Positions 25,625-62,300 of a DNA stretch of 64,000 nucleotides are shown in pieces (position 1 is the stretch's first letter; each line of letters begins with the position of its first letter). Made by a program: the position numbers and the translations under genes. Origin of the DNA: an uncultured Planctomycetales bacterium (GTDB lineage: Bacteria; Omnitrophota; Gorgyraeia; Zapsychrales; JBDRMG01); assembly GCA_964478715.1 (NCBI GenBank), contig CAYZIY010000001.1:213196-277195 (forward strand), written 5' to 3'. A model generated the notes under the pieces. That model ran no database searches. It saw nothing but the letters and a program-made list of their open reading frames with translations, and was not told the DNA's origin.

Positions 25625-25661
25625 GGGCTGAAATCACGTAGTGATTTCAGCCCTTTTTCTT
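25625..25661 (+). terminator. Rho-independent terminator (GGGCTGAAATCAC-gta-GTGATTTCAGCCC + TTTTTCTT)
   Basis: A 13-bp perfect stem with a 3-nt loop and a T-tract lies 23 nt after the PFOR stop. Confidence 0.8.
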
Positions 25662-25743
25662 GACCCGTAAAGAAAATTGTCCCTTGCTCCATCTGCTGTT
25701 TCGCAGTACAATCAAAAAAAGAATAAAGGAAAACAAATGCATC

Positions 25744-31305: not shown

Positions 31306-31321
31306 AAGGAAAGGTAAGAAA

Positions 31322-31876: not shown

Positions 31877-32356
31877 ATGGATAAAAAAATTCTTGTTGTC
31901 GATGATGAAGCCGAGCTTTGCGAGATGATGCAGCGTGTTTTAGCTAAACGCGGTTACCAGGTCATCGCTACCACAGATTCCAAACAAGCTTTAGATTTAT
32001 GCAAAAGCGAGCTTCCGGATTTGATCATTCTCGATATCATGATGCCGGAGTTAAAAGGCGATGCCGTGATTGAGCTTTTAAAAGGCGATCCGAAGACCCG
32101 GCATATTAAAATCATTGTCGCTAGCGGTCATGGCGAAATGGTTTATGATAGTAAGCAGGACAAGTGGTGCTGGATGCCCAATGAGCCCAATGTGGAAGAT
32201 CACAATGAACGGGTTGATGACCGTTGGCCTTCCCGGGCGGCGGAAGCATTGGGCGCGCAGCATTATCTCAAGAAACCTTTTATGCCCGTAACGCTTTTGT
32301 CTGTTGTGAAGGATGTTTTAGCGAAGAAATCCGACGAGCAACAAGACGATCAATAA
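31877..32356 (+). CDS. Stand-alone REC protein with Trp-rich alpha4 insertion (paralogue of 31322..31837 and 26..490)
   Basis: REC elements are KKILVVDDEAEL, LIILDIMMPELKG and IIVASGHGE. The insert reads KQDKWCWMPNEP... before YLKKPF. Confidence 0.8.
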   Translation: MDKKILVVDDEAELCEMMQRVLAKRGYQVIATTDSKQALDLCKSELPDLIILDIMMPELKGDAVIELLKGDPKTRHIKIIVASGHGEMVYDSKQDKWCWMPNEPNVEDHNERVDDRWPSRAAEALGAQHYLKKPFMPVTLLSVVKDVLAKKSDEQQDDQ

Positions 32357-42455: not shown

Positions 42456-43618
42456 AAAGAAATGAGGCCTATACGATTCCGGAAATCATGACTGTTTTGG
42501 TGCTTTTTGTCCTGATCGGGCTAGCGATTTTGACCGCTTTCAATGTGGTTAAAAATTCCTACTTTCGGGGAGTAACCCAAATTGAACTTCAGGATAAAGC
42601 TCGTTTTGCCTCAGCCCGAGTAACCAGTGAATTGTCCATTTCGGCACCTAGCCGGGTTTCTCTTTATCGCTGTCCTGATTCTCCCGATAATGTTTGTCAC
42701 GGCGGTGTCGTGGCTTTCCAGACGCCGGTTGTCAATGATTTTGTTATTGCCGGAAGCATTTATAAACGGCCTGTCGGGGCAAGACGCTTGGCCAAATGGG
42801 GATACGATGGAAGAGAGGTTGATGAAAGAATTATTTACATGGTGCCTAAGGCCAATAATCCTCAGCTTGGCAGCTATGCGCATCAGTTGATTCGCTTGAC
42901 CCGTAAACCCTATTGCGGAGACGGTTTTTGCGATGTTTCTCACGGGGAGGATGAGGGGCTGACATTTTGCAGCGCCGATTGTCTTTGCGGTAATGGACAC
43001 TGCAGTCTATTGGAATCTGTAGATACATGTGAAGATGATTGTTTTTGCGGTAATGGAACGTGTGATATGGGAGAGGATGATGTTCTCTGTGGCCAAGATT
43101 GTTTTTGCGGAAACGGCCGCTGTGATCCCGGTGAAGCTGGCGCAGGTTGTGAGGATTGCAGTGATTGCGGCAACGGAATTTGTGAATCAGGTGAGAGTAA
43201 TGCCGGTTGCAGCATTGATTGCTCGTGTCCCAACGGGAGTTGTGATCCGGATGAAAATTCCGATACCTGTCCGGCCGATTGTCCTGTCGCATCTCTGAGA
43301 AATTTAGATATCCAATGGATAGAGGATTTTTTTGTCCAGAAGGCCTTTGCTCAGGACATTCCTGATCCACCGGATATTGCGGCCTATGAACAGTTACCCG
43401 ACTTGCTTGAAAAAAATAATTATTTTATCCGCGTTATTGCCGATAAAGTGCAGGCCATTTATTTTGAAGGTATTCCCGGCCCCGGGACAGGCGGAATGCG
43501 GGCGCCAGAAAATGTGAGGGTTTACATCAAGATGCAAAATTCGGGCAATCCATTTGCTCAAGAGTTAAATATATATCATATGGCTACAGCCCGATTGATC
43601 AATTCCGGGCTAGATTAA
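42452..43618 (+). CDS. Type IV pilin/pseudopilin-like protein (Ala at -1) with five tandem CGNGxC cysteine-rich repeats
   Basis: The N-terminus MKRNEA|YTIPEIMTVLVLFVLIG parallels the prepilin consensus G|FTLIELMVV, with Glu at +5. The central region repeats DC[FL]CGNGxC...C..DC five times. The ORF overlaps the DUF368 gene by 4 bp. Confidence 0.55.
   Translation: MKRNEAYTIPEIMTVLVLFVLIGLAILTAFNVVKNSYFRGVTQIELQDKARFASARVTSELSISAPSRVSLYRCPDSPDNVCHGGVVAFQTPVVNDFVIAGSIYKRPVGARRLAKWGYDGREVDERIIYMVPKANNPQLGSYAHQLIRLTRKPYCGDGFCDVSHGEDEGLTFCSADCLCGNGHCSLLESVDTCEDDCFCGNGTCDMGEDDVLCGQDCFCGNGRCDPGEAGAGCEDCSDCGNGICESGESNAGCSIDCSCPNGSCDPDENSDTCPADCPVASLRNLDIQWIEDFFVQKAFAQDIPDPPDIAAYEQLPDLLEKNNYFIRVIADKVQAIYFEGIPGPGTGGMRAPENVRVYIKMQNSGNPFAQELNIYHMATARLINSGLD
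42977..43283 (+). repeat. Five in-frame tandem repeats (~57-63 bp) beginning GATTG(T/C)yTTTGCGG(T/A)AA(T/C)GG
   Basis: Direct reading shows the consecutive GATTGT...TGCGGnAAnGG units. These encode the Cys-rich protein repeats. Confidence 0.8.
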
Positions 43619-43713: not shown

Positions 43714-43905
43714 ATGGAAAACGGTTTCTCAATAATGATGTTTATGTTTAGTAATACTGGTTATCTTAAGGATATCAATTATACTTTTATCAAGAGGTTG
43801 AAAAAGGTTGTCCGCCGCAGTGTTATGGTGAACAGCAAAACTATAGGGCCCCTTGGATGGTATGGGTGCAACCAGTTGCCAACTAAAAAGGAATTTTCTT
43901 GGTAA
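43714..43905 (+). other. Candidate small gene (63-aa ORF) or sRNA bounded by a promoter-like site (TTGCAT-18-TAGAAT) and an intrinsic terminator
   Basis: A promoter-like site lies at about 43681-43710 and ends 3 nt before the ATG, so the transcript would be leaderless. A terminator sits at 43911-43940. The ORF has no recognisable domain. Confidence 0.3.
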
Positions 43906-43910
43906 ACATG

Positions 43911-43940
43911 ATCCATCCCGCTGGGGGATGGATTTTTTTT
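43911..43940 (+). terminator. Rho-independent terminator (ATCCATCCC-gctg-GGGATGGAT + T8)
   Basis: A perfect 9-bp stem is followed by eight T. It lies immediately before the GGAG RBS of the 43952 gene. Confidence 0.75.
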
Positions 43941-43951
43941 CGGAGAACAAG

Positions 43952-46762
43952 ATGAGTTGTTTGATATCATTAAAATGTCGAAATGAAAATGGCCAGGCTA
44001 TTCTTTTAGGCGTGATCGGTCTGACTCTTTTATTGGTGGGGGTGGCTACGGCTCATTTTATCCAAACGACCAACGCGGCTTTGGTTTTGCGGACAGAAAA
44101 TAAGAATAATATGGCTTTGTTCAATGCCCAAAGAGGATTGGAATATGTCGTTTATGAATTAGCTTTTGCAGCACCAGAGCCGATTAACTGGTTTACTCAC
44201 CAAGCTCAAAGTGATCAATCACTTGTTTATGCCGAAGGGAATTTTTTTGCAGAATATGGGATTCAGTTGGGAAATATAAACGAAATTTATTACGATGCGG
44301 ATAATCCGCAAGATAGCGGATATCGCTCTAAGTTGGATCAAGAAGTGCAGTTTATCGCGAAAATTTATAATGATCCTTCCAATATTTTAAATCAAGCTAA
44401 TAAGATCATATTGGTCAAAGGCATTAGCGGTGATACCCAACGCATGATTGCCAGCAGGGTGGACTTGACCTCTTTGTATGAATACTTTATTTTTGACCCC
44501 AATTCCGGGCGTAGCATTCGCGGTAATCTAGATGCTGGCGGAGGCCGCATTCATATCAATGGTGACGTGACGCTTTTCGGCAATGCCCAGATTTTTAATT
44601 TGGGGGAACTTAATGTCAACGGCTATTTTATATACGATTCTATACGTTTTTATGTTCCCATGTATGACACAACAGCTATTCCGGCAGGTGAAGTCGGAGG
44701 ACCCGCTGCGGGTGTTACGGGGATGTTTGTGGATGATCAATACCGGACATTGGCTCCTCGCTTTGACGATGGTCTTCCCGGGACGGTGACGTGGGCCCAG
44801 ATGCAGGGGATTGATGATGCCGATGGTAATCCGAATTGGAAAGTGGGAGCGTGCAGCGGAATGTCTGATGAGTCGCAATGCGCTTTTAGTGATTTGAGCG
44901 GTCCTCAAAAATACTATTCGCTGGAAAAACTGATTTATCACGCGAATCCATTTACTGGAAGCGGCATTGGGACGCTCCAGGGTGATCGCTGGGGATCTGT
45001 GTGCGAAAAAGGGAACACGGGTGTTTTTAGCGGCTGCGGAAGTACTTACGGCCGGGAGGAAGACGGCCATATCTGGGAATTTCGTCATCCGCATCTGTAT
45101 CCGGATTCATACATGTATAAGAATTACGGACAATCGGATGAAATGGTTGCGCCGACAAAAATTCAACCTGTTGGCGGCGGATCATTGATCCCTATCCCCA
45201 ATCGATTAAATACGAGCTATCGCTGGGATAAATATTATTTTGACGGGTCCCAGGGTCGTTCGAGAATGTATGACGGAGAACGCTATGCATATCCTCCGCC
45301 GGGTACATATGATCCACAGACCCAATGTCCCGAGCCTTATTGCGCGGACGTTCAATATTTGAATACAGAACTACAGGCTCAGGACTGGATTGATTTTTTG
45401 AGGTACGACAATGATAATGACGGGGACGGGATCGGCGATTTATACGGGGTGATTAAAGACAGAAATACCGGGGGAGAGCCGATTAGCCCTCCGGTTTTTG
45501 ATCAAGCCAGATATCAGTCAACTGCACAAAACGAAGGGATCTATATTAGAAATACTGTCCCATCGGATGAATGGAATAATTATGAATACCGTGGGTCAGA
45601 AACAGCATTGAGCCGAGTGAATACTTATTATCGGGATCCCGATAAGACTTTGGATAATAACGGAAGCTATGAAGTCTACATCAAGGGGGTTTCCGATCCC
45701 CTGGTTCCTGATAATGAAGGACAGATCAAAATGAATATTGAGGGAGATGAACTTGTATTATTTGAGAAGAAAGGCTTCTACAATACTCGCTCTACGCTCT
45801 GGACTCAGGTTATTCAGATGAACATTTGTAATCTCAAAAGGGCCATTGACGCGGGTGATTTGGAGTTGGACGAAAATATCTTTTACTCCGATTGGGGAGT
45901 GGCCTTAGCTTGCGCCGAAGAAATCATTGATGGAGGGATGACGGTGATTACCGAAGGAGATGCCTTTACCATCGGCAATGTCAATGTTGATACCGATGAT
46001 CCCAGTAATTTAGATAATCCAGGCTTTGAGCCGGCAGCCATCATAACCGATCGCATGTTTCAGGTTTTATCCGAAGATTTTAATTATCCTCAGGAATTAC
46101 CCGAGCTGGGCAATCACCCTGATTACGACCATAATTTCGGCTATGTCCCTGAGTCGGTCAATCGGCAGTGGATGCATGATCATGATCCGGACAATCCGGG
46201 GGACCCGACGGTTGAAGCCGTGATGCCCAATAAAGTCAGAAATGATGTTTATGTCAATATTTCGGTTCTGGGTGAAAGAGCCACTGACCAAGATGTAGGA
46301 TGGCATCTCGGTTTGGAAATGTGGTCATGGTATGAGGATTGGCTTAATGACGGGGAGGCCGATATCCATGAATTCGAAACATTTACCCGAGGCACGCGTT
46401 TGGATCTTCCTGATGGCGCTTTTGAATCCAAATTTGATTATGGCGGATTAGATATTTCGGTCAATCGCCGTTGCGATCCGACCTGCGGGGCAATTCCTAA
46501 TGGCTGGCCGAGCTGTCGAGGATGTTCGAACTATTGCGATGGGACCGATCCCGATAATCCCTGCCCGGGAAGCTCTACAGGTGTTTTTCCCATCATCTGC
46601 TGTGGTCATCGGAGTGGGCTTTTGGCTTGGGAAAATCGTTATTTGACGGATGGTTTCCCTCCTGGAGATTTACCGGGATTATCTCTAGAGGTCTGGTATC
46701 CCCTTCCCAATACGGAGGAAAACTGGACGACGCATTGCAAACTCTTACAAGGGAATGTGTGA
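43952..46762 (+). CDS. Large secreted/anchored protein (937 aa) with PilX_N-like N-terminus; possible pilus-tip/PilY1-like adhesin
   Basis: The N-terminus NGQAILLGVIGLTLLLVGVATA resembles the PilX_N hydrophobic segment. The rest is Asp, Asn and Gly-rich with many Cys near the C-terminus. The start is the ATG after the terminator, where the track extends upstream. Confidence 0.45.
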   Translation: MSCLISLKCRNENGQAILLGVIGLTLLLVGVATAHFIQTTNAALVLRTENKNNMALFNAQRGLEYVVYELAFAAPEPINWFTHQAQSDQSLVYAEGNFFAEYGIQLGNINEIYYDADNPQDSGYRSKLDQEVQFIAKIYNDPSNILNQANKIILVKGISGDTQRMIASRVDLTSLYEYFIFDPNSGRSIRGNLDAGGGRIHINGDVTLFGNAQIFNLGELNVNGYFIYDSIRFYVPMYDTTAIPAGEVGGPAAGVTGMFVDDQYRTLAPRFDDGLPGTVTWAQMQGIDDADGNPNWKVGACSGMSDESQCAFSDLSGPQKYYSLEKLIYHANPFTGSGIGTLQGDRWGSVCEKGNTGVFSGCGSTYGREEDGHIWEFRHPHLYPDSYMYKNYGQSDEMVAPTKIQPVGGGSLIPIPNRLNTSYRWDKYYFDGSQGRSRMYDGERYAYPPPGTYDPQTQCPEPYCADVQYLNTELQAQDWIDFLRYDNDNDGDGIGDLYGVIKDRNTGGEPISPPVFDQARYQSTAQNEGIYIRNTVPSDEWNNYEYRGSETALSRVNTYYRDPDKTLDNNGSYEVYIKGVSDPLVPDNEGQIKMNIEGDELVLFEKKGFYNTRSTLWTQVIQMNICNLKRAIDAGDLELDENIFYSDWGVALACAEEIIDGGMTVITEGDAFTIGNVNVDTDDPSNLDNPGFEPAAIITDRMFQVLSEDFNYPQELPELGNHPDYDHNFGYVPESVNRQWMHDHDPDNPGDPTVEAVMPNKVRNDVYVNISVLGERATDQDVGWHLGLEMWSWYEDWLNDGEADIHEFETFTRGTRLDLPDGAFESKFDYGGLDISVNRRCDPTCGAIPNGWPSCRGCSNYCDGTDPDNPCPGSSTGVFPIICCGHRSGLLAWENRYLTDGFPPGDLPGLSLEVWYPLPNTEENWTTHCKLLQGNV

Positions 46763-47701: not shown

Positions 47702-48103
47702 ATGGCAAAAAAAATTCTTGTTGTCGATGATGACCCAACCGTTGTACACTTGATCCAATCTCGCATGGAAGTCAACGGGTATGAAGTGATCTCCGCTTCC
47801 GATGGAGAAGAGGGCTTGAAATTTGTTCGGGATTATGAGCCGAATTTGGTTTTGCTTGACGTGATTCTGCCAAAAATGGATGGGTATACTTTTGTTAAAG
47901 AATTTAAAAAGATTGCAGATCTGAAAACCATTCCCGTCATTGTCATGACCGTTAAAAGCCAGCTTCAGGATCTCTTCAAGCAAGAAGGCATTGAGGCCTA
48001 TATTATCAAACCCATCAAGCTTCAGGATTTATTGAAAAAGGTCGAGTCTTATATCGGACCCGCTCAAGGCCCAAGCAATCCGCAATCCCAGCAAGGAACA
48101 TAA
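47702..48103 (+). CDS. CheY-like stand-alone response regulator receiver
   Basis: REC elements are KKILVVDDDPTVVHLI, LVLLDVILPKMDG, VIVMTVK and YIIKPIK. Confidence 0.85.
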   Translation: MAKKILVVDDDPTVVHLIQSRMEVNGYEVISASDGEEGLKFVRDYEPNLVLLDVILPKMDGYTFVKEFKKIADLKTIPVIVMTVKSQLQDLFKQEGIEAYIIKPIKLQDLLKKVESYIGPAQGPSNPQSQQGT

Positions 48104-48138
48104 GAACTTATCCATTGGTTCAAATTGACGTCGAGAAA

Positions 48139-49653
48139 ATGAAAAGAGTTTTCTCAATCTTAACGGTTATCTTCTTGTTTTCATCCGTTGCCTGTGGTGA
48201 AACTTTCATCAAAAGACCGAATGTCAGCGGGCGTTTTTATGACAGCCACCCGGCCCAGCTTTCTCAAAAGATCGATATCTATTTTCAGCAGGCGGATATT
48301 AAGCCATGGGAAAAGAATATCCAAATCTTAATGGCGCCTCATGCTGGTTATGCGTTCTCCGGGCCAGTTGCCGCCTATGCCTACAAGGCTGCTTCGAGGC
48401 AGCGGCCCAAAACGATTATTATCTTGGCATCTACTCATTTTCACCGTTTTCAGGGAGTTTCTATCTGGCCCAAAGGACAATTCGAGACGCCTTTAGGCGC
48501 TTTGCCTGTTGATGAGGAGATGACCCAGCAGCTGATCAATTATGACCAGCAGTTTCGGTTTTATCGCAAAGCGTTCGATCAAGAGCATTCCCTGGAAGTC
48601 CAGCTGCCATTTTGCCAAAAGACATTCTCAGATTTTAAGATCGTTCCTTTAATAATGGGGCAGCCAGATTTTGAGATCAGTCAGAAATTGGCTGAAGCTC
48701 TCAATGCCGTGATCGCTCAGCGGAATGATGTTTTGATTGTCATAAGCACGGACATGTCTCATTATAAGCCGGATCAAAAAGCCCGAATAATTGATAGAAA
48801 AACCACGGAGGCTCTAGAAAATTTTAAAATTGAAAAACTGTGGCGGGGATGCCAAAACCGGACAATGGAATTATGCGGGTATTCTTCGGTTGTGACCGGA
48901 CTTCTTTATGCGCGCTTAAGAGGTTTCGGTGGAATTCAAGTGCTGCATTACGGGAATTCGGCGGATGCTTCTGGTGATCAAAGCCGGGTTGTCGGATATA
49001 TGGCGGCTGTCATTTACGAAAAGGAAGATAGAAACTCAAAGCCAAAGAAAGGACAGGCTATCCAAATGAATCCGGACAAAAGAAATGACAGGACGGCCCC
49101 GTTGACTTTAAAACAGAAAACAAAATTGATTGAAGTGGCCAGAGACGCGATCGAGACATTCGTCCTCAGCCAGAAAAAGATTGATCTTAATAATAATGAT
49201 CCGAGGCTGCAGGAAGAAGAAGGCGCTTTTGTCACCATCCACAAAAATGGCCGGTTGCGTGGGTGTATCGGAAATATTATCGGACGCAGACCGTTGATTC
49301 AAACTGTCCGCGATATGGCGATTGCCGCGGCCGTTGATGATCCGCGCTTCCCGCCTTTAAAAAAAGAAGAATGGCAAGATATCGATGTAGAAATTTCTGT
49401 TTTATCCAAGCCGTGGCGCATGCAAGATCCAGACGAATTTCGGGCTGGAGTTCACGGAGCTATTATCCGACGGGGATTCAATCAAGGCGTCTTTCTGCCG
49501 CAGGTGGCTACGGAATTCAGCTGGGGCCGCGACGAATTTCTTTCCCATCTGTGCGCTCACAAGGCGGGTCTGCCGTCTGATGCGTGGAAGGACCCCCGCA
49601 CAGAAGTCCAGTTATTTACAGCCGAGGTTTTTAGCGAGAAGGACATCAAATAA
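48139..49653 (+). CDS. MEMO1-family (AmmeMemoRadiSam protein B) fused to AMMECR1 domain (protein A), with N-terminal lipoprotein-type signal peptide
   Basis: MEMO1 motifs are MAPHAGYAFSG, DMSHY and CGYSS. The AMMECR1 motif is GAFVTIHKNGRLRGCIGNI. The N-terminus reads MKRVFSILTVIFLFSSVAC|G. Confidence 0.8.
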   Translation: MKRVFSILTVIFLFSSVACGETFIKRPNVSGRFYDSHPAQLSQKIDIYFQQADIKPWEKNIQILMAPHAGYAFSGPVAAYAYKAASRQRPKTIIILASTHFHRFQGVSIWPKGQFETPLGALPVDEEMTQQLINYDQQFRFYRKAFDQEHSLEVQLPFCQKTFSDFKIVPLIMGQPDFEISQKLAEALNAVIAQRNDVLIVISTDMSHYKPDQKARIIDRKTTEALENFKIEKLWRGCQNRTMELCGYSSVVTGLLYARLRGFGGIQVLHYGNSADASGDQSRVVGYMAAVIYEKEDRNSKPKKGQAIQMNPDKRNDRTAPLTLKQKTKLIEVARDAIETFVLSQKKIDLNNNDPRLQEEEGAFVTIHKNGRLRGCIGNIIGRRPLIQTVRDMAIAAAVDDPRFPPLKKEEWQDIDVEISVLSKPWRMQDPDEFRAGVHGAIIRRGFNQGVFLPQVATEFSWGRDEFLSHLCAHKAGLPSDAWKDPRTEVQLFTAEVFSEKDIK

Positions 49654-49746: not shown

Positions 49747-50151
49747 ATGGCTGCTCAAAAGAGAAGTTTTTTTAGAGTCACAGAATTCCAGAAACCATTT
49801 TTAAATCTCGTCATAGGATTGGCTGTTATTACGCTAACCATGATGGTTGTTTGCATCGGATTTCTCCTTTATGATGTATCCACTTTTATTGTGGATCCGC
49901 AAAGCACGGTTAACACCATGAAGGCCATGGTGTATTTACTTTTAATTCTCCTTCCATTGATTTTGATGGGAGGCATCTTTTGGGCCTATTACATTACCAG
50001 TAAGGTGATTGGTCCCTTTGAGCGGTTGATCCGAGAGCTTGATGAAATTCTGGAAACAGGAAAGAAAAAGCATCTGCAGACTCGACAGGGTGACCGGCTG
50101 GCCAAGGAGATGCTCAAGCGTATTAATGCCTTGATCGATCGCATGTCATGA
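49747..50151 (+). CDS. Small membrane protein (2 TM + C-terminal helix)
   Basis: Two hydrophobic helices are followed by a charged amphipathic tail. Confidence 0.45.
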   Translation: MAAQKRSFFRVTEFQKPFLNLVIGLAVITLTMMVVCIGFLLYDVSTFIVDPQSTVNTMKAMVYLLLILLPLILMGGIFWAYYITSKVIGPFERLIRELDEILETGKKKHLQTRQGDRLAKEMLKRINALIDRMS

Positions 50152-50504
50152 AGTTGCCTTTCAGCGGTCTTTTTTTCTTTCTGTTGATCTCCGGAGTTGT
50201 ATTTGCCCATCCCCCAGATGCGATCCATTTATCCTATCAAGAGGATACTCAGATTCTCAAGATTGTGGTCGATCATAACGCCCGTAATATCAGAGATCAT
50301 TTTATCCGACGAATTGTTGTTCTACACAATAAACAGGAAATAAGAGATGAGATTTTTCCAACTCAGAGTGATCATCAGACGCAGATAATGGATGTTTCTC
50401 TCAAGGCAGAGAATGGCGACCGTATTCGGGTAAAAGCCTATTGTTCGCAGGCGGGATACAAAGAGAAGACTCTCGATATAGTCTTAGAAGAAGATGATAA
50501 ATAG
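50148..50504 (+). CDS. Small secreted protein, unknown function
   Basis: The signal peptide reads MKLPFSGLFFFLLISGVVFA. The gene overlaps the upstream gene by 4 bp. Confidence 0.45.
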   Translation: MKLPFSGLFFFLLISGVVFAHPPDAIHLSYQEDTQILKIVVDHNARNIRDHFIRRIVVLHNKQEIRDEIFPTQSDHQTQIMDVSLKAENGDRIRVKAYCSQAGYKEKTLDIVLEEDDK

Positions 50505-50522
50505 ATAAGATGGCAGGATAAA

Positions 50523-50570
50523 AAATCCCGCCCTTTTAGACAGAAGTCCAAAAGGGCGGGATTTATTTTT
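50523..50570. terminator. Bidirectional rho-independent terminator (15-bp stem AAATCCCGCCCTTTT/AAAAGGGCGGGATTT) between convergent genes
   Basis: A perfect 15-bp inverted repeat has A-runs upstream and T-runs downstream. Confidence 0.8.
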
Positions 50571-50586
50571 AGATGCTGTGGCTGTC

Positions 50587-51483
50587 TTATCTCAGTAGTG
50601 TTTTCACTCTAGTATCCGTAGCCGGATCTTCCGGAGGCGGTGGCGGAGGAAGAACCGGATCTGATGGCTCCTGAGGTGCGCTCAATTCAAAGTGAGCATA
50701 ACCTCCGCTGGTTTCCTCTTCAATACATTCCGGGGCTGGACCTTTGCTGCTTAAATATTCAGAAAGATAAGTCAGGTCTTCGATGTTGATGGCTCCATCT
50801 GCATTGACATCGCCCGTACCTTCGGCCAAAGCCGCTCCTGAGCGGAACATGAAATTCGCCAAATGAACAGCATCTTGTTGATTCACGGCGGCATCATTAT
50901 TGATATCGGCACAAGAATAATACACTCTTATTTCCGGATCACAGATTGGCGCAGGACCGCTGCCGCTGATAAATTGGCTTAAAAAGACCACATCGCTGAT
51001 ATTTCTGGCGCCGTCTCCGTTCATATCACAATCCTCATCAGGGATTGTGCCATCATTTAAGATAGCATCGGCATCAGCATAATTGATTTTATTATCTTTA
51101 TTGACATCCGCGCAAGGCGCCTGGCGATAACTGGGGCAAAGCGGTGCCGGTCCGCCCTGAAGAAGATAATCATTCAGATAATTTAAATCCACAACATTAA
51201 CAATACCATCTAAATTCATATCGGCTGCATGTTCAAGCGGAGGAGGCGACCCCTGGTGAAACATATATTGAATCAAATAGGGCAGGTCCATCAAATGGAC
51301 CATTCCGTTTCCATCCACATCACCGCAGACAAAATTGCTGGGAAGGGAAGGATAGACCGGTGTTTCGTCTCCGGCATTATCCGTTGCTCCGCTAAAATCC
51401 CAGCTGCCATCAGCTGCATAAGCCAATGACTGTGCACCAACAAACAATACGCAAATAACTAAACCTGTGATTAATTTTTTCAT
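50587..51483 (-). CDS. Secreted protein composed of six dockerin-type (EF-hand-like Ca-binding) repeats plus Pro-rich C-terminus
   Basis: The signal peptide is MKKLITGLVICVLFVGAQSLAYA. Six DxNxDGxxNxxD...L..[YF]L segments follow, for example DMNLDGIVNVVDLNYLNDYLL and DVNADGAINIEDLTYLSEYL. The tail reads PPPPPPEDP. The RBS is GAGGAGGG. Confidence 0.7.
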   Translation of the reverse strand: MKKLITGLVICVLFVGAQSLAYAADGSWDFSGATDNAGDETPVYPSLPSNFVCGDVDGNGMVHLMDLPYLIQYMFHQGSPPPLEHAADMNLDGIVNVVDLNYLNDYLLQGGPAPLCPSYRQAPCADVNKDNKINYADADAILNDGTIPDEDCDMNGDGARNISDVVFLSQFISGSGPAPICDPEIRVYYSCADINNDAAVNQQDAVHLANFMFRSGAALAEGTGDVNADGAINIEDLTYLSEYLSSKGPAPECIEEETSGGYAHFELSAPQEPSDPVLPPPPPPEDPATDTRVKTLLR

Positions 51484-51522
51484 TTTTATTCCCTCCTCTG
51501 AAAATTTCTTTTGCTGCCCAAT

Positions 51523-51555
51523 AAAAAAACCTGCATCCTTTTCTGAATACAGGTT
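51523..51555 (-). terminator. Intrinsic terminator/attenuator hairpin (ACCUGUA...UGCAGGU + U7) in the 5' leader of the dockerin gene
   Basis: On the minus strand a 7-bp stem with a 12-nt loop is followed by TTTTTTT. It lies about 25 nt upstream of the RBS and downstream of the riboswitch aptamers. Confidence 0.55.
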
Positions 51556-51571
51556 CGTCTGGTCATATACC

Positions 51572-51662
51572 GTCTTGATTCGGCAGCCAGGCTATCCTGT
51601 TTAAGGACCCTTAACTTTGCGCCCCCGCCTTCCGGCGCACACAAAATGTGTGTCAACTGATA
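51572..51662 (-). ncRNA. c-di-GMP-I (GEMM-I)-like riboswitch aptamer, copy 2 (gene-proximal)
   Basis: The minus-strand sequence reads ...GCGCC-GGAA-GGCG GGGGCGCAAAGUU AAGGGUCCUUAAAC...GGCUGCCGAAUC. It has a GNRA-capped hairpin followed by GCGCAAAG, and a 3' UGCCGAA element. It is related to copy 1 but a weaker match. Confidence 0.45.
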
Positions 51663-51695
51663 ATGCAGTTGAGGTTTACCTTTATCGTCAAGCGT

Positions 51696-51800
51696 TCTTA
51701 ATTCGGTAGCTAGGCTGCCCTATATCCTTATAAGCCTCTACCATAGGGCCCTGTGGCTTTGCGAGATCATCTTGCGATGATTGTGCTTTTGTCGTTAAGA
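51696..51800 (-). ncRNA. c-di-GMP-I (GEMM-I)-like riboswitch aptamer, copy 1
   Basis: The minus strand reads UCUUAA-CGACAAAA-GCACAA-UCAUC-[GCAA]-GAUGAU-CUCGCAAAGCC-ACAGGGCCCUAUGG...AUAGGGCAGCC-UAGCUACCGAA-UUAAGA. P1 pairs UCUUAA with UUAAGA. P2 has a GNRA loop. The CGCAAAGCC and UACCGA elements align with Vibrio Vc2 GCAAAC-CAUUC-[GAAA]-GAGUGG-GACGCAAAGCC...GGUUACCGA. Confidence 0.65.
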
Positions 51801-52072
51801 GACGTGAATACGGATTTTAAAGAACGATTGCTTCTAAACATAAGCATAAAACATAATCGAGGTCTATGCCAAAGATATTTTGAGAAAGTTGTGTTTTTTT
51901 GAAAACGTTTTCTTTAATTTTCTTACTTGCTGTAAATAAATAAGTTATAATAACAAGATTTTATCATGCCAAGAAAAAAACATGGACGTTTTTATGAAGC
52001 AGAAGTAAAATACAAACGTAAAATGAAGCCTGTTAAACATACAACGGTGTTATTCAACAGAAAACGGAACCG

Positions 52073-53968
52073 ATGATGAGAATAATAAAATTGTTGTTAC
52101 TATTAATCATAATATTAATACTTATTGTTGGAATCGTCGGATTTATTTTTATTAAGACATTTGACGCGAATCAATATCGCGATCAAATTGCCCAATGGAT
52201 GACGACATCGATTGGGCGACCGGTTTCCTTGGAATCACTGGAGCTGGCCGTTGCCATTCGGGAGGGACTTTCCCTTTATATTAAAGGAATCCAAATGGAT
52301 CAAGACCCACAAACAGCTACTGGAAATATGGTTTCTATCGAGAAGATCAGAATGAATATTCTTCTTGAACCTTTTCTTTTCAAAAGAGAAATTCATGTTT
52401 CAGCCATTGAGGCTGTTTCTCCTCATATTCGTCTTATTCGTTTAGCCGATCAGAAGCGCAAGAGCGCGGCTTTGGCCCAACCCGTCTCGCAAGAGAGCAC
52501 TGACTTAGCCGAAGAGGATCGGAAAAGAGTTGAGGGAGGTTCGAGAGCCGAATCGGGTCAATCCGCTTTTCCATTATTGGGTGTAGCAGTAAAGAATTTT
52601 CGGATTACAGACGGTCTTATTTCTTATGAAGATAAGACGCAAGAGGCATTTACCGCATTAAAGATCAGTAATATCGATGTGAAGATACAGGATTTTCAGC
52701 TTCAGGAATGGACCGATTTTGTCCTGAAAGCCGCGTTTTTGAGCTCCCGACAGAATATCGACTTAAAAGGATCTTTGCGGTTTGATTTAGAGCAGCTGCG
52801 TTTGCAATTTGAAGAAACCCATCTTCAAATCGACTTGGGTTTTGTTTCGATCGATCAATTGCAAGAAACCTTTCCTGCTCTTAGCGCTTGTCGGATCAAA
52901 GACAATTGGGCAGGTGATCTGAGTATCTCGATAGTGGATAGCCAAATGACGTTAAAAGGACTTAGCATCCTGGATGCCAGAGGATCTTTGTCAAAGGGAT
53001 TTCTCAACTGTGCGGTTATGCCTTTTGCTTTAGAGAATATTTCAGCGAATTTTCTGGCGGATCAGAAAGATTTTAAGCTGAAGAATTTCCAGGCGATCAC
53101 ACTCGCCCAGCAACAAGAATCGGGGGAGATCGCGGCCAGCGGAACGATCAATGATTATTTAAAGGATCAAGTATTCCGTTTGGATCTGGATCTTAAGAAA
53201 TTGAATTGTGCCAATCTCATCCCTCAGTCAAAAAGCGAGGTTAAGGTCGAAGGGTTCTTAAGCGGGAATTATCAACTCTCCGGAGAGGGTCTTTCTTCAG
53301 AGACAATATTCAATCTGCTCAAAGGGCAAGGGACATTTAGCCTGGAATCAGGAAAGCTGAAAAATATCAATGTCTTAAAAGAGGTCTTTCAAAAGATGTC
53401 AGTTATTCCCGGCCTGGCCGAAGATTTGGAGCAGAACTTAAGCGAAACATACAAAGAGAAACTTAAAGCCACAGATACAATCATTAAGGAGAATCAATTT
53501 ATTACCTCAGTCCAGGGGCGGAATCTGAATATTGAAGAATTTCGTGTCTCTACCGATTCCTTTGAACTTCGAGGGGAGGGGGCATTAGATCTAGAAAGGC
53601 AAATTAAATTGAGGGCGGCTTTGCAAATTCTTCCGGAATTATCGACAGCGATGGTTCAGACTGTTGAAGAGCTTGATTTCATCAGGGAATCAAACGGAAG
53701 AATTACTTTTCCTGTTGTTATTCAGGGACAAATTCCGCAGTTGAGTTATCGTCCGGATGTGGAATATCTGGGTCAGAATATATTTAAAAATCGAGGGAAA
53801 CAGGAGCTTAAAAAACTTCTTGGTGATGTTTTAGGGACAGATAAAGAAAAACAACAGAAGCAGGCGGATTCCCAAGATGATCAAAGTGATCCTGATCGGC
53901 TAACGCAACCGGAGTCATCAGCTGAGGAAAAACTCGTGGATGATTTACTGGACATGATTTTTAATTAG
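52073..53968 (+). CDS. AsmA-family protein (outer-membrane biogenesis/lipid transport-like)
   Basis: An N-terminal TM anchor precedes a long periplasmic AsmA-like beta-rich region. The tail is acidic. Confidence 0.55.
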   Translation: MMRIIKLLLLLIIILILIVGIVGFIFIKTFDANQYRDQIAQWMTTSIGRPVSLESLELAVAIREGLSLYIKGIQMDQDPQTATGNMVSIEKIRMNILLEPFLFKREIHVSAIEAVSPHIRLIRLADQKRKSAALAQPVSQESTDLAEEDRKRVEGGSRAESGQSAFPLLGVAVKNFRITDGLISYEDKTQEAFTALKISNIDVKIQDFQLQEWTDFVLKAAFLSSRQNIDLKGSLRFDLEQLRLQFEETHLQIDLGFVSIDQLQETFPALSACRIKDNWAGDLSISIVDSQMTLKGLSILDARGSLSKGFLNCAVMPFALENISANFLADQKDFKLKNFQAITLAQQQESGEIAASGTINDYLKDQVFRLDLDLKKLNCANLIPQSKSEVKVEGFLSGNYQLSGEGLSSETIFNLLKGQGTFSLESGKLKNINVLKEVFQKMSVIPGLAEDLEQNLSETYKEKLKATDTIIKENQFITSVQGRNLNIEEFRVSTDSFELRGEGALDLERQIKLRAALQILPELSTAMVQTVEELDFIRESNGRITFPVVIQGQIPQLSYRPDVEYLGQNIFKNRGKQELKKLLGDVLGTDKEKQQKQADSQDDQSDPDRLTQPESSAEEKLVDDLLDMIFN

Positions 53969-55438: not shown

Positions 55439-56491
55439 ATGAGCTGGTTTCGATTAAAAATGCCTTCGGTTTATCAGGTGGAGGCGCGCGGTAGCTTTCG
55501 GATCAATGAGCGCTTTCCGTTGATTTGGCATCTAAAAGACAGTTCCGTTGGCTCAACGGCGCTCGTGCGCAACTTAAGCGCCACCGGGATGATGCTTGAG
55601 GCGGATATTCAAAGCCCTCCTCCGGTGGACAGTGTTTTATCTTTCGAAATCAAAGGCGATCATCCCTTGGGCGTGATTCCGCCTTTGGGCCGAATTGTTT
55701 GGAGTAAACCAAAATCCTGTATTTCTTCCCGCTCTTTGTACGGCATTGAATTCATCGAGCCGGTCCAGGACATTTTGTTGCGTCTGCGTGAATTTATTCA
55801 GCAGAAAATTATCCGAATGGAGAATGCAGAAAGGGTAAAAGCAAGGATAGGCATCGTTCTTTTTATTATCTTGACTGCAGTTTTGGCTTTCTGTTTGTTT
55901 CAGCAAAATGCTATTCACCGCAATTATGAAAAATCCTATCATCTAATGACAGCTAGTTCCCAGGCCCAGGCATCGACATATGGCGAATTACGCATGCAAT
56001 ATCAGAATCAGAGGGAAGTTCTTAAGGTAATTTCGATCGATTTAAGCAAATCTCAGGCTCTCTTAGAAGAAACCGAAGTCATGTTGACCTCTGTTCGAAA
56101 GGAAAGCGAGGCCGCTTTGGGCCGGCTCAACAGCGAAATTAATAATTTACATCAAAAGAATTCGGCTTTATCCGATCAGTTGGAAGAAGCGCAAGGTCAA
56201 CTGGCTGTGTATGAGGTTAACCCCGACAATTTGGATGAAGCTAAGGCCATTCTTTCTTTTCATCAAGCAATGATTGCCAAGATAAAAAGAAAGATCAATA
56301 ATCTAAGACAGCAGGCTCGCATGGCTTATGTGAAGGTCCAGAAAAAGAGAGACGAATACGCTTTAGCCATGGGAAATAATGGTTTTATTATCAAAAACGG
56401 AAAGCCTGTTCCCCCATATCAGTCTGAATATTACTCCCGCATGAAGCGGTCTTCCCCTGAGATCGAAATCGACGTAACGCTGGTGGAATAA
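55439..56491 (+). CDS. PilZ-domain protein with TM helix and long C-terminal coiled-coil
   Basis: The N-terminal PilZ-like motifs are an RxxxR region (EARGSFRINER) and NLSATG (D/NxSxxG). A TM helix (IVLFIILTAVLAFCLF) is followed by heptad-rich sequence. Confidence 0.55.
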   Translation: MSWFRLKMPSVYQVEARGSFRINERFPLIWHLKDSSVGSTALVRNLSATGMMLEADIQSPPPVDSVLSFEIKGDHPLGVIPPLGRIVWSKPKSCISSRSLYGIEFIEPVQDILLRLREFIQQKIIRMENAERVKARIGIVLFIILTAVLAFCLFQQNAIHRNYEKSYHLMTASSQAQASTYGELRMQYQNQREVLKVISIDLSKSQALLEETEVMLTSVRKESEAALGRLNSEINNLHQKNSALSDQLEEAQGQLAVYEVNPDNLDEAKAILSFHQAMIAKIKRKINNLRQQARMAYVKVQKKRDEYALAMGNNGFIIKNGKPVPPYQSEYYSRMKRSSPEIEIDVTLVE

Positions 56492-59350: not shown

Positions 59351-62300
59351 ATGAACAGCCTTATGCCTCAAGCACATAGAAACACATCAGCATCCGAATA
59401 CGCCTTAAATGAAAAAGGCGCTTTTCTGATTCACAATTACAATAAATCTAACGCTTTTTGTAACTTTTTCCCTGGAGTGGCCGGTTTATGGGGGATTCCC
59501 ATGTGGGTATTTTATGTCAATCGAGGTCAGTGTATCTCAAGTTTCGGGGTGGAGAGCAAGGACAAGGCTATTATGGAGTTTCAGCCGGCCGATAAAGCCT
59601 ATCGCATGACATCTCATCAGGGTTTTCGTACATTTATGAAAGTCAGCAGAGATCGCAAAGTTTTTTTTTATGAGCCATTTGCCGAAACGATCGCCAATAA
59701 CCAGTTTGTGCGTAGTCAGGAAATGGCGATTACATCCCATGATTTGACGATTGAGGAAATTAATGAAACTCTGGGCCTCAAGGTCCGGGTGAATTATTTT
59801 ACTGTTCCCTCTGAAAATTTTGCCTCTCTCGTACGGGATATTACAATCACCAATCTATCAAGCAAACATTGTTATCTTGATTTGGTCGACGGCATGCCGG
59901 TCATTGTTCCTTTTGGCGTCAACCATCAGCTTCAGAAAGATATTTCGCGTACCGTTCAAGCGTGGAATCAGGTGAATAATTTCAAAGCAAAAGCGCCGAT
60001 TTATAATCTTAAAGTGAAGATTGCCGATCGTCCGGAAGTAGAGACCATTGAAGGAGGACATTTCTTTTTCAGTCTCATGCACAACGGATACAAACCTAAG
60101 CCCCTCTCTGTGGTCATTGATCCGGTTTGTGTTTTTGGTAGCCATTTGGATTACAATATTCCAGACCTTTTTCTGAAACAAAAGAAATTTAATGTTCCCC
60201 GCCGGCAAATGTCGAGCAATCGTTCTGTTAGCGCCATGAGTCATGCTTTTTTGGATTTGCCCGCAAAAGGGGATCAGAGAATAACATCTTTCTTTGGCCA
60301 TACTCATAATATTGATGAGATTAGTCAAATATTAGCTAAAACGAGGAAGAAAGATTATATTGCCAAGAAATCTGAGGAGAACGAGCGAATTATCAAGGAT
60401 ATTAAGAATTATTGCCTAACCAACAGCTCATCGAAGGCCTTGAATCATTATTGCGGTCAGACATTTCTTGATAATGTTTTGCGTGGTGGGCTGCCTCAGT
60501 GTATTGAAGCCGATGACGGACGGATTGTTTTTAATGTGTATAGTCGTAAACACGGCGATCTGGAGAGGGATTATAATTATTTTGTGCTGGCTCCAACCTA
60601 TCTATCCCAGGGAAACGGAAATTACCGGGATGTGAATCAAAACAGGCGCAATGATGTGTGGTTTGATACGCGGGTGAGAGAAAGCCATATCTTGCAGTTT
60701 CTTAATCTTCTTCAGGCCGACGGATACAATCCTTTGGTTGTCCAGGGGACAGCTTTTTCGATCGATAGTACGCATAAAATCGAACAATTTGTTAATGAGT
60801 TCGGGCAGGGGCGAGGCAAGACGCACCTGAAAAAACTGTTGTCAAAGAAATTCCAGCCCGGACAGTTATTAAAAACTATCGAAGAAGAGAAAATCAAACT
60901 CAAGGTTCCAGGAGACGAATTTCTTAAGAGAATTCTCAGACATTGTCAAAAGCATGATGTCGCTCGGCATGGAGAAGGATTTTGGAGCGATCATTGGACG
61001 TACTGTCTGGATCTTCTAGAGCGTTATTTCGCGCTTTATCCGGAAGATAAGAAAAAGCTATTTCTCGAGCAGAATCAATTCAAGTTTTTTTATAACAGGT
61101 ATCATATCTTACCGCTTGACCAGAGATTCGTTCTTACTCCGCGCGGTGTGCGTCAATACCATTCCGTTAAGAAGCTGCCTCGCGAGATGCTCCCGCCTCA
61201 GTACGATGGACAGCTTAGGGCAAAGGAAGGGAAGGGAGATGTTTATTTTACAAACCTTTTTGTCAAATTATTGTGTACTATTGTCAATAAAGCGGCTACG
61301 TTTGATCCCAGCGGTGTGGGTATAGAAATGGAAGGCGGCAAGCCCAATTGGTATGATGCTCTTAACGGGCTCCCTGGCTTGATGGGGTCTTCTCTCAATG
61401 AAACGCTCGAATTAAAACGCTGGTGTCTCTTTGTCCGTCGAGTTATTGAAGACTTGGATCTTAAAGACCACCAAGAGTTGTATGTATTTGAAGAGCTTTG
61501 TAGTTTGATGTCAGCCTTGCATGATCTTTTGGCAACGCAACAGGATGATTTGTCTTACTGGCGGCGTTCTAATGAAGTTAAAGAACACTACCGGCGCCGT
61601 ATTCTCGAGGGAATTGACGGACACGAGAAGGCCGTCCCGATCTCTTCGATCGATAAATTCCTGGAACGGGTGATCTGTAAGTGTGATTGCGCTCTTGAAA
61701 AGGCCAAAGATAGCCACGGACTTTTAAGAACTTATTTTACGCATGAAGTAACACAATACGATGAGTTGGAACGAACAGGATTCGATGGATGCCCTTTGGT
61801 TCATCCTCTGAATTTCAAGATGAGGGCTTTGCCGCTTTTCTTGGAAGGTTTTGTCCATGCCATGCGTGTTCAGAAAGATCAAATCCGAGCCAGGGCTTTG
61901 TATCAAAAGGTAAGAGGGAGCCGTCTTTTTGATAAAAAATTAAAGATGTATCGTTGCAATGACGACCTTTCGGGCGAGAGTCCTGAAATAGGCCGCTGTC
62001 ATGTGTTTCCGCCGGGTTGGTTGGAGAATCAGTCAATCTGGCAACACATGCAGAAGAAGTTTCTTTTGGAATTGTTGCGCTATGGCTTATACGAAGAATT
62101 TTTTAATAATATGAAAAAGACATTGATTCCGTTTTTAAACCCCAAAAGATATGGGCGCAGTATTTTGGAGAATTCTTCATTTATTGTTAGTTCAGCACAT
62201 GAAGATGTTAAACTGCATGGAAAAGGTTTCGTGGCGCGCTTAAGCGGGACCACAGCGGAATGGCTTCATATCTGGCTGATCTTGAATGCGGGAGAAACTC

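Follow-up and report, generated by a model that had tools for sequence, protein, structure and literature searches.

Two adjacent GEMM-I aptamers upstream of a single terminator in the leader of an Omnitrophota dockerin gene, a probable OFF-type riboswitch

A 64-kb stretch of DNA (hereinafter referred to as the window) was analyzed, and all coordinates given here are those of the window. Its host belongs to Omnitrophota, in agreement with the candidate-phylum-like character noticed in a previous reading made without database searches (hereinafter the sequence-only reading). A dockerin gene was found on the minus strand, as were the riboswitch, the terminator and the ribosome-binding site (RBS) in its leader (Table 1). 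The gene product of 298 aa contained a Sec-type signal peptide (MKKLITGLVICVLFVGAQSLAYA), four stretches matching Dockerin_1 (PF00404, 80.5 bits), flanking Cys residues, and a Pro-rich tail, so that the earlier description of a secreted dockerin-repeat protein holds. The gene is followed by a terminator of its own and the next ORFs (50148..50504 and 49747..50151) lie on the opposite strand, indicating that the regulated unit is monocistronic. No credible ORF was identified in the upstream spacer (51484..52072), which had also been read as non-coding before; only a 56-aa ORF starting with TTG was present over the aptamers. The promoter-like hexamers in this spacer are regarded as a weak candidate, since such sites were no more frequent in the region than in shuffled sequences. 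Signaling by c-di-GMP was also represented in the window, namely by a PilZ protein and by a GGDEF protein whose GHLEGD motif is canonical.

Table 1. Positions of the features in the leader and the regulated gene (window coordinates).
Feature	Position	Strand	Basis or remark
Promoter-like hexamers TTGGCA-18-TATGCT	51843..51872	(-)	9/12 matches; weak candidate only
Aptamer 1 (GEMM-I fold)	51696..51800	(-)	RF01051, 50.2 bits, model positions 1-87
Three-base linker ACG between both P1 helices	51693..51695	(-)	P1 strand coordinates
Aptamer 2 (GEMM-I fold)	51574..51692	(-)	RF01051, 37.1 bits, model positions 1-87
P2 insertion (34 nt) in the 5' strand of aptamer 2	51638..51671	(-)	Two hairpins
Candidate antiterminator	51549..51600	(-)	Folding energies
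Intrinsic terminator, 12-bp stem and U7 run	51520..51556	(-)	Sole expression platform
RBS GAGGAGGG	51491..51498	(-)	7 nt 5' of the ATG at 51483
Regulated dockerin gene	50587..51483	(-)	Translation and PF00404 matches
Gene-end terminator, 19-bp stem and T run	50523..50564	(-)	3' of the dockerin gene

When the whole window was scanned against 4227 Rfam families at their gathering scores, exactly two matches were obtained, both to RF01051 (c-di-GMP-I) on the minus strand. Copy 1 (51797..51702; E=7.7e-07) and copy 2 (51690..51579; E=0.0013) exceeded the gathering score of 35 bits, and neither alignment was truncated. The sequence-only reading had staked its proposal on two such matches, and its riboswitch interpretation is supported. 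The presence of two above-threshold GEMM-I aptamers in the leader of the dockerin gene is thus confirmed. RF01786 (c-di-GMP class II) matched neither copy. RF03167, a related clan model for the GGC variant, was rejected; its scores of 47.4 bits and, for copy 2, 42.8 bits fell short of the gathering score (59 bits), and the canonical CGCAAAG was present in both copies. Matches to Lnt, SSRC10, and mir-2208 were weak and at chance level.

In aptamer 1, P1 (UCUUAA/UUAAGA) pairs 51800-51795 with 51701-51696, P2 is AUCAUC-GCAA-GAUGAU, and P3 comprises 13 bp with one C.A mismatch. P1 and the GCAA-looped P2 had been recognized at these positions (51800..51696) from the letters alone, and the 3' motifs and the RBS named at that time were also present. 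The position equivalent to G20 of the Vibrio cholerae riboswitch Vc2 was occupied by A (A51787) in both the cmscan and MAFFT alignments, the A47-equivalent was A51760, and the CC for C92, which like G20 and A47 contacts the ligand in Vc2, was found at 51706-51705. Aptamer 2, whose 5' boundary had been placed at 51662, starts at 51692. Its P1 (CUUGA/UCAAG) pairs 51692-51688 with 51578-51574, its P3 has 12 bp, the canonical G (G51680) is located at the G20 position, the A47-equivalent is A51618, and the CC lies at 51583-51582. The GGAA-capped hairpin seen previously exists (CGCC-GGAA-GGCG), but it forms just the end of a P2 helix containing an insertion. This insertion measured 34 nt by reading of the helices and 45 nt as the cmscan insert state, and it contained the hairpins CAACUG-CAUUAU-CAGUUG and CACACA-UUU-UGUGUG. 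The segment folded alone at -20.6 kcal/mol, with CCU/GGG closing three hairpins, and a continuous 7-bp P2 with its GNRA loop remained beside the self-contained insertion hairpins. It occurred once in the window, and its identity as a dispersed repeat or mobile element was rejected.

Both copies retained the conserved core bases (AAA-R-G, CGCAAAG, and AGCC..GCU.CCGAA) and all of the helices P1, P2, and P3, with 3' ends reading ACCGAA and GCCGAA. All 27 enforced pairs of aptamer 1, from which the C.A mismatch was left out, and all 22 pairs of aptamer 2 were standard. Between the copies, two full compensatory changes were identified from the Infernal alignment and the pair lists (A-U to G-C in P1 and C-G to U-A in P3), together with four further changes that were one-sided or wobble-compatible. 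The comparison was based on Infernal because a MAFFT alignment of 12 aptamers shifted the P3 register by one column between the copies. Since P1 and the flanking bases are alike in both copies, the aptamers appear to have arisen by local duplication.

The pair had been described as reproducing the layout of Vc2 (RF01051) element by element. The overall agreement stands: both aptamers share with Vc2 the three-helix junction of P1, P2, and P3, a GNRA loop on P2, the CGCAAAG strand with the intercalating A47, and the 3' end ..GCU.CCGAA, and G20 is kept in aptamer 2. The match of every element does not, because the CUAA/AUG tetraloop-receptor segment is absent (its columns are deleted in both alignments), the P2 loops are GCAA (aptamer 1) and GGAA (aptamer 2) instead of GAAA, A replaces G20 in aptamer 1, and P2 of aptamer 2 contains the 34-45 nt insertion. 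In lacking the receptor segment, the two aptamers presumably resemble the receptor-less 'type 2' GEMM-I RNAs.

The P1 helices of the aptamers are separated only by ACG (51695-51693), and this three-base linker leaves no room for a separate expression platform of aptamer 1. No terminator-like site was found between the aptamers on the minus strand. Downstream of aptamer 2, a terminator was identified that consisted of a 12-bp stem (GAACCUGUAUUC/GGAUGCAGGUUU; 51556-51527), a 6-nt loop, and a U7 run. The terminator, its U7, and its position between aptamer 2 and the RBS had been recognized earlier, although its stem had been counted as 7 bp. It is assigned to the leader because no minus-strand gene lies upstream of it.

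A candidate antiterminator was found in which the linker and the 5' strand of the terminator (CCAGACGAACCUGU) are base-paired with a stretch of aptamer 2 made up of the 3' strand of P3, J3/1, and the 3' strand of P1 (ACAGGAUAGCCUGG...). The energy of this hairpin was -16.9 kcal/mol, versus -14.9 for the terminator. Among 1000 shuffles of this segment, which had been chosen a priori, 4 reached the duplex energy (-18.3); the same energy was attained somewhere in 114 of 500 shuffles of the whole leader, so that the support for the antiterminator is positional only. Within the leader, the strongest partner of the linker plus terminator 5' strand was the 3' half of aptamer 2. Whether P1 formation competes with the terminator had been posed earlier as a question for constrained folding. 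Both terminator strands lie outside the aptamer and overlap neither P1 nor any other aptamer strand; unless ligand locks aptamer 2, its 3' half is free to engage the 5' strand of the terminator.

In folding snapshots, the state of the terminator was decided by aptamer 2 alone. When aptamer 2 was enforced, the terminator formed, and in the snapshots with the 5' end at 51810 its 5' strand was essentially unpaired. When aptamer 2 was not enforced, the terminator 5' strand paired with 51596-51600 in aptamer 2 if aptamer 1 was enforced, and with 51720-51727 in aptamer 1 with the 5' end at 51810. At equilibrium, minimum-free-energy folding yielded the terminator in all states, with or without bound ligand, and the distinction between ON and OFF is therefore a kinetic argument.

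We consider it probable that the leader is a dual-aptamer GEMM-I riboswitch of the OFF type, in which one shared terminator controls the monocistronic gene of four dockerin stretches. With a little less assurance, folding favors transcriptional control in the OFF direction, laid out as in Cd1. Binding of the ligand, predicted to be c-di-GMP, to aptamer 2 with its G20 would lock the 3' half of this aptamer, leaving the terminator 5' strand free; the terminator would then form and the dockerin gene would be silenced. In the ligand-free state, this 3' half would instead engage the linker together with the terminator 5' strand, allowing read-through. Aptamer 1, having no platform of its own, would most likely act as a second sensor of lower affinity or relaxed specificity that may help aptamer 2 to fold or sharpen the response. 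When cyclic-dinucleotide levels are high, synthesis of the dockerin protein, read as a soluble and multivalent part of the apparatus for cell-surface attachment, would be expected to stop. Cd1 of Clostridioides difficile is a c-di-GMP-I transcriptional OFF switch with the P-A-T-H scheme (PMC9262584). The order of aptamer, switching strand, and terminator strand is the same in both leaders, each allows base-pairing of the aptamer 3' strand to the 5' strand of the terminator, and the ligand is predicted to favor termination in the window leader as well. In contrast, Cd1 has one aptamer and precedes a flagellar operon, whereas the window leader has two fused aptamers and precedes the gene of a secreted protein with dockerin modules.

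The direction of the switch may also be the opposite, with the ligand preventing termination and the dockerin protein being induced at high c-di-GMP. For surface or adhesion genes, c-di-GMP more often switches expression ON, and it usually promotes attachment factors, among them many adhesins. The c-di-GMP-I/c-AMP-GMP examples of D. acetoxidans were predicted to be ON switches (PMC9481103). Equilibrium folds cannot discriminate the direction, and when the 5' end was set at 51835, the terminator 5' strand was captured by an upstream segment of the leader (51826-51834), upon its emergence in all four states and slightly later in three of four, which indicates that unmodelled long-range pairings exist. 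An ON switch is nevertheless unlikely in view of the arrangement of the strands: no terminator strand overlaps an aptamer strand, the terminator formed with aptamer 2 enforced, the 17-nt linker was read as containing no segment complementary to either terminator strand, and the best partner of the linker and terminator 5' strand is the one expected of an OFF switch.

Tandem arrangements of c-di-GMP-I aptamers are well known, with 347 doublets and 12 triplets catalogued (PMC9481103). The catalogued doublets and Bc3-5 of Bacillus thuringiensis resemble the window leader in having several class-I aptamers per leader, for which a sharper or more digital response is expected. Unlike the window pair, with its aptamers 3 nt apart upstream of one terminator, such tandems are described as complete pseudo-cooperative units in which each aptamer has its own platform. 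The window leader does not have that feature; its short linker and one downstream platform are those of a dual-aptamer, single-platform riboswitch. We further identified 15 other closely adjacent, Rfam-confirmed c-di-GMP-I pairs in at least five other phyla, some of them being the same sequence in both collections (L110, L111, L127, L132, L134, L136, L169, L176, L178, and L142; L004, L025, L072, L080, and L096 from metagenomes). Their hosts included Armatimonadota, Acetothermia, Fraserbacteria, Gaiellales, Clostridia, and Acetoanaerobium. As in the window, where the distance between model ends is 11 nt, the aptamers of these pairs are 9-32 nt apart and share one downstream platform. They differ in that the platform is mostly translational and overlaps the RBS, the scores are 57-82 bits, and none is from Omnitrophota or located 5' of a dockerin gene. 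The novelty that had been claimed for the tandem is accordingly modest. A comparable layout of two homologous aptamers, a short linker, and a single expression platform is found in the glycine riboswitch, but its RNA family and ligand are unrelated.

Because aptamer 2 scored barely above the gathering score and has an unusual insertion in one P2 strand, it could be impaired. A related possibility is that only one aptamer is functional while its duplicate decays, the decaying copy being aptamer 2, disabled by its insertion, or the platformless aptamer 1. The score of aptamer 2, 37.1 bits, is below the range of the other adjacent pairs, and aptamer 1 combines the C.A mismatch in P3 with a non-canonical ligand-contact base. 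Decay is improbable, however, since every helix and all conserved core bases are kept in both copies and the changes separating the copies are compensatory or compatible with wobble pairing. Moreover, the insertion hairpins are self-contained and leave the 7-bp P2 and its GNRA loop intact, and the sharing of one platform by two adjacent aptamers recurs elsewhere, as the other pairs show.

The base at position 20 raises the question of ligand specificity. In GEMM-Ib RNAs, which bind 3',3'-cGAMP or are bispecific, the signature is A at the Vc2 G20 equivalent (A14 of Gs1761), and the affinities of the G20A variant of Vc2 were 53 nM for c-di-GMP and 120 nM for cGAMP, compared with pM-range binding of c-di-GMP by the wild type (PMC6140456). 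Specificity was also shifted by an A/G difference in the aptamers of D. acetoxidans (PMC9481103). The signature base was present only in aptamer 1, for which weaker binding of c-di-GMP and/or acceptance of 3',3'-cGAMP is therefore expected. Because the leader is identical in two independent SRA assemblies, A51787 is not an assembly error. The A/G combination was found in none of the 15 other adjacent pairs, in which all aptamers have G except the first aptamer of L096 (C), and this pairing of A20 with G20 is the only unusual feature of the leader.

On this basis, the leader could be a heterotypic device in which a cGAMP-leaning GEMM-Ib aptamer (aptamer 1) is fused to a c-di-GMP-sensing GEMM-I aptamer (aptamer 2) and the shared terminator integrates the two messengers. 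The A/G difference and the shift of binding toward cGAMP caused by A (PMC6140456, PMC9481103) are in line with such a device, but we regard it as rather improbable: A20 alone yields bispecific and not cGAMP-selective aptamers, the terminator state was set by aptamer 2 in the folding snapshots, and cGAMP riboswitch signaling has so far been documented in Geobacter/Desulfuromonadales-type lineages. In addition, no cGAMP synthase was visible within the window. The sole GGDEF protein was rejected as a Hypr-GGDEF because its GHLEGD motif has the guanine-specific Asp at the specificity position, a 297-aa receiver protein was rejected as a GGDEF enzyme because it contains no GGDEF domain, and no CD-NTase or DncV-like Pfam match was obtained among the window ORFs scanned. 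The tandems of Geobacter, e.g., GSU2885, have the tandem arrangement and the A at the G20 equivalent in common with aptamer 1 (PMC6456294), but they are Ib/Ib pairs under a Hypr-GGDEF cGAMP synthase. If the heterotypic device were real, it would place cGAMP signaling outside the lineages with proven GEMM-Ib riboswitches, and two messengers would control an extracellular dockerin protein in a host-associated candidate phylum.

Finally, a chance resemblance or a structured spacer that is not a riboswitch, for which nothing but the marginal score of copy 2 speaks, is extremely improbable given two adjacent matches to the same family on the same strand at the E-values above among 4227 families, their location in a 5' leader ahead of a terminator and an RBS, and a leader folding energy of z=-4.5 relative to shuffles.

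Omnitrophota are uncultured, mostly ultra-small, and possibly predatory or host-dependent bacteria, for which dockerin-repeat surface proteins have been proposed as attachment devices (bioRxiv 10.1101/2023.11.21.568195). The leader places cyclic-dinucleotide riboswitch control in this phylum and, through its link to a secreted dockerin-only protein, offers a testable handle on the timing with which an attachment component is deployed or withdrawn by these cells. The fusion of two aptamers upstream of a single platform recurs across several phyla; the literature found gives c-di-GMP-I tandems separate platforms, and the fused form is not singled out there. Neither the RNA class nor its occurrence in tandem nor the A20 variant is new, and the leader is a real but largely ordinary new example. 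Its A/G difference provides a compact natural test of specificity or affinity divergence between paralogous aptamers in one leader.

No close homologue of the dockerin protein was found among 5.8 billion proteins, the search returning only the protein itself and weak matches to dockerin modules alone. No related leader emerged when the metagenome and genome collections were scanned by pattern, no Rfam match was located upstream of the three distant dockerin homologues fetched, and a genome scan for synteny with the neighboring Memo/AMMECR1 protein found nothing. The homologues of this neighbor were all from Omnitrophota, with identities of 55% or less, and the taxonomic assignment of the host is based on them. 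Two SRA contigs carried the locus at 100% identity and hence provided no variation. Within the leader itself, the 3' halves of the two aptamers were mutually complementary (GGCAGCC/GGCUGCC plus flanks) and were paired in the ligand-free minimum-free-energy fold, a hint from the energy model that the two aptamers may be interdependent.

Exactly two matches were obtained when the whole 64-kb window was scanned against Rfam 15 at gathering thresholds, both to the c-di-GMP-I family (RF01051, gathering score 35) and both on the minus strand: aptamer 1 at 51797..51702 (50.2 bits, E=7.7e-07) and aptamer 2 at 51690..51579 (37.1 bits, E=0.0013), each covering model positions 1-87. The tandem riboswitch proposed in the sequence-only reading, with this RF01051 threshold as its own test, was thus genuine and correctly interpreted, and the leader of the dockerin-repeat gene (50587..51483) is a new representative of a known riboswitch family. 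In a permissive scan of 51400..52100, the sister model RF03167 scored 47.4 and 42.8 bits, below its gathering score of 59, no class-II c-di-GMP riboswitch was matched, and the remaining extra matches were at chance level. Identity with the GGC variant was rejected, because both aptamers carried the canonical CGCAAAG and RF03167 scored below gathering. No earlier description of such a riboswitch in Omnitrophota or before a dockerin-type gene was found in the literature.

In aptamer 1, as read on the minus strand of 50400..52400, P1 (UCUUAA/UUAAGA) enclosed a P2 (AUCAUC-GCAA-GAUGAU) flanked by a G-C/C-G clamp and followed by the CGCAAAG strand, a P3 of 13 pairs with one C.A mismatch, and the 3' end GCUACCGAA. 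The P1 of aptamer 2 (CUUGA/UCAAG) was separated from that of aptamer 1 by ACG only. The start of this copy had been placed at 51662, which overlooked its true 5' part, CUUGACGAUAAAGGUAAACC, the counterpart of UCUUAACGACAAAAGCACAA in aptamer 1; aptamer 2 begins at 51692. Its P2 was unusual in that CCU (51674-51672) and CGCC (51637-51634) paired with the uninterrupted 3' strand GGCGGGG, with GGAA as the loop, the insertion between them occurring once in the window. The P2 insert state comprised 45 nt in the Infernal alignment, and the P2 segment folded alone gave three hairpins closed by CCU/GGG (-20.6 kcal/mol). The CUAA/AUG tetraloop-receptor columns were absent from both aptamers in the Infernal alignment, and the P2 loops were GCAA and GGAA rather than GAAA.

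Features of the riboswitch leader (window positions)
Feature	Position	Strand	Description
Aptamer 1 incl. P1	51800..51696	-	sequence reading and RF01051 alignment
Aptamer 2 incl. P1	51692..51574	-	sequence reading and RF01051 alignment
P2 insertion of aptamer 2, 34 nt	51671-51638	-	two hairpins bulging from P2 5' strand
Leader terminator	51556..51520	-	12-bp stem GAACCUGUAUUC-AGAAAA-GGAUGCAGGUUU, inside U7 run
RBS GAGGAGGG	51498-51491	-	ATG at 51483

The hairpin with a U7 run that had been proposed between aptamer 2 and the RBS was present as a terminator, with a stem of 12 bp instead of 7. It was assigned to the leader because no minus-strand gene was found upstream of it, the neighbouring AsmA-family gene (52073..53968) being divergent. 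A promoter-like site at 51872..51843 (-) was no better than chance. Both terminator strands lay outside the aptamer, and no complement to either was found in the 17-nt linker. With aptamer 2 held in its consensus fold, the terminator still formed, and its 5' strand was essentially unpaired at the stage when the 3' strand was not yet out (5' end 51810). With aptamer 2 unenforced, the 5' strand paired with ACAGG (51600-51596), the P3 3' strand of aptamer 2, both when the aptamer-2 region was folded alone and in the full leader with aptamer 1 held folded; with no aptamer enforced (5' end 51810), it paired with GGAUAUAG (51727-51720) in aptamer 1. The aptamer-2 antiterminator hairpin (51600..51549) reached -16.9 kcal/mol and the terminator hairpin -14.9 kcal/mol. 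When the linker plus terminator 5' strand was tested for duplex formation along the whole leader in sliding 32-nt windows, it paired best with the 3' half of aptamer 2 (-18.3 kcal/mol); 4 of 1000 shuffles of this segment attained that value, as did 114 of 500 whole-leader shuffles, and the aptamer-1 pairing (-10.7) was reached in 43 of 500 of the latter. Once its 3' strand was present, the terminator was the minimum-free-energy structure in every state, so the argument for an OFF switch is kinetic. With a transcript 5' end set near 51835, an upstream segment also paired with the terminator 5' strand in folding. The leader shares the P-A-T-H layout described for the Clostridioides difficile OFF switch Cd1 (PMC9262584), and since the antiterminator/terminator folding matches it, the leader is predicted with moderate confidence to be an OFF switch.

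Aptamer 1 had no platform of its own. The 3' halves of the two aptamers paired extensively in the ligand-free equilibrium fold, through near-palindromic GGCAGCC/GGCUGCC cores and their flanks, so that locking of aptamer 1 by ligand would release aptamer 2 to fold, as one possible route to joint action. Directly 5' of aptamer 1, AAUCCGUAUUCA (51805-51816, -) resembled the terminator 5' strand AACCUGUAUUCA. Directly after the U tract, UAUUGGGCAGC (51513-51523, -) resembled UAUAGGGCAGC of the aptamer 1 P3 and was also complementary to the end of aptamer 2, GCUGCCGAAU. These short repeats may be remnants of a longer duplicated unit or additional switching elements.

At the column of G20 in the Vibrio cholerae reference aptamer Vc2, aptamer 1 carried A51787 and aptamer 2 carried G51680, in the Infernal alignments and in a MAFFT alignment to which ten aptamers of other loci were added. 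Both window aptamers had the adenine equivalent to A47 and the 3'-strand CC, and A51787 of aptamer 1 was present in two independent SRA assemblies, 100% identical across the leader. In Vc2, G20 recognises one guanine of c-di-GMP by its Hoogsteen face (Keller et al., 2018; PMC6140456), and an A stands at the equivalent position in GEMM-Ib riboswitches for 3',3'-cGAMP (PMC6140456). Reported values for Vc2 G20A are 53 nM for c-di-GMP and 120 nM for cGAMP, the wild type lying in the pM range for c-di-GMP (PMC6140456), and in three D. acetoxidans aptamers that are otherwise alike, the same A/G difference was shown to shift specificity (Sherlock et al., 2022; PMC9481103). That this leader integrates two messengers, cGAMP and c-di-GMP, is nevertheless improbable. 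Nothing similar to a cGAMP synthase was found among the window ORFs scanned. The PAS-GAF-GGDEF protein (25660-27531, +), with an AGDEF site and the canonical guanine-specifying Asp (GHLEGD), is by its motifs of diguanylate-cyclase rather than Hypr-GGDEF type. Besides this GGDEF gene, the c-di-GMP signalling genes in the vicinity include a PilZ gene: a 350-aa protein encoded 4 kb from the riboswitch (55439-56491, +) combined an N-terminal PilZ domain, which is a c-di-GMP receptor domain, with a long coiled-coil-like tail.

P1 and its flanks were alike in both aptamers although the family as a whole does not conserve P1, which points to an origin by local duplication. Between the copies, pairing was kept through double changes in P1 (A-U to G-C) and P3 (C-G to U-A), together with one-sided or wobble-compatible changes at the P2 base (C-G to U.G) and in P3 (C-G to U.G, G-C to G.U, C.A to U.G); this qualitative comparison of two paralogous sequences is suggestive of structural constraint on both. 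Pattern scans of both collections, metagenomes and genomes, brought up no related leader. Among 5.8 billion proteins, the 298-aa product matched others weakly and through dockerins only, and no riboswitch lay upstream of three of these distant relatives.

The c-di-GMP-I class is the most frequent among tandem riboswitches, with 347 doublets and 12 triplets, and its tandems are treated as full units, each with a platform of its own (PMC9481103; PMC12452182), whereas the window leader has fused aptamers and one platform. Tandem GEMM-Ib riboswitches are reported in Geobacter (PMC6456294). Metagenome contigs and species-representative genomes were scanned for a 3' block 10-40 nt from the 5' block of a second aptamer; after filtering, 15 adjacent pairs were confirmed by Rfam, some being the same sequence in both collections, so the fused architecture is recurrent. 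They came from Armatimonadota, Acetothermia, Fraserbacteria, Gaiellales, Clostridia, Acetoanaerobium and unassigned contigs, with model ends 9-32 nt apart (11 nt in the window). An RBS followed immediately in most pairs, a terminator in a few; at loci L110, L111, L132, L134, L169, L176/L025, L080 and L004, the 3' end of the second aptamer (...CCGAAGGAG) was continuous with the RBS and start codon. By sequence, most adjacent pairs in other phyla have a single translational platform. Rfam clan competition reported RF03167 (c-di-GMP-I-GGC) as best for L004, L072, L080, L082, L110, L111 and others, a naming artefact, as canonical CGCAAAG was carried. The A/G combination at position 20 was not found in this small sample of 15 pairs, and about 4 of the 26 single aptamers from the first scan had A. 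All aptamers of the pairs had G there except the first of L096 (7495-7706, +; C in AAAC-GC-AAA), a possible further specificity variant; this metagenome contig carried the two aptamers 9 nt apart and also an M-box riboswitch.

The regulated gene was monocistronic, being followed by a 19-bp terminator (50564..50523) and convergent ORFs. Besides four Dockerin_1 matches (PF00404, 80.5 bits) together with flanking cysteines, its product has a signal peptide of the Sec type and a tail rich in proline. In a preprint on giant genes of Omnitrophota, extracellular proteins rich in dockerins are proposed to attach the cells to a host or to prey (10.1101/2023.11.21.568195). The leader merits bench study for its combination of A20 and G20 on one terminator, for the insertion in P2, and for the OFF logic predicted for a soluble protein with four dockerins. 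In the window, no Pfam match was found for four plus-strand ORFs (43853-46762, 59351-62659, 27555-28841 and 42452-43618; 969, 1102, 428 and 388 aa), and no recognisable output domain in five plus-strand receiver-domain proteins (26-490, 500-1393, 31256-31837, 31877-32356 and 47702-48103). Memo (AmmeMemoRadiSam B) and AMMECR1 (A) are fused in a protein encoded at 48115-49653 (+). The same fusion is shared by hundreds of homologues labelled Omnitrophota (49-55% identity), and the named homologues of this protein were all from Candidatus Omnitrophota at <=55% identity, which places the host as a deep-branching member of Omnitrophota.
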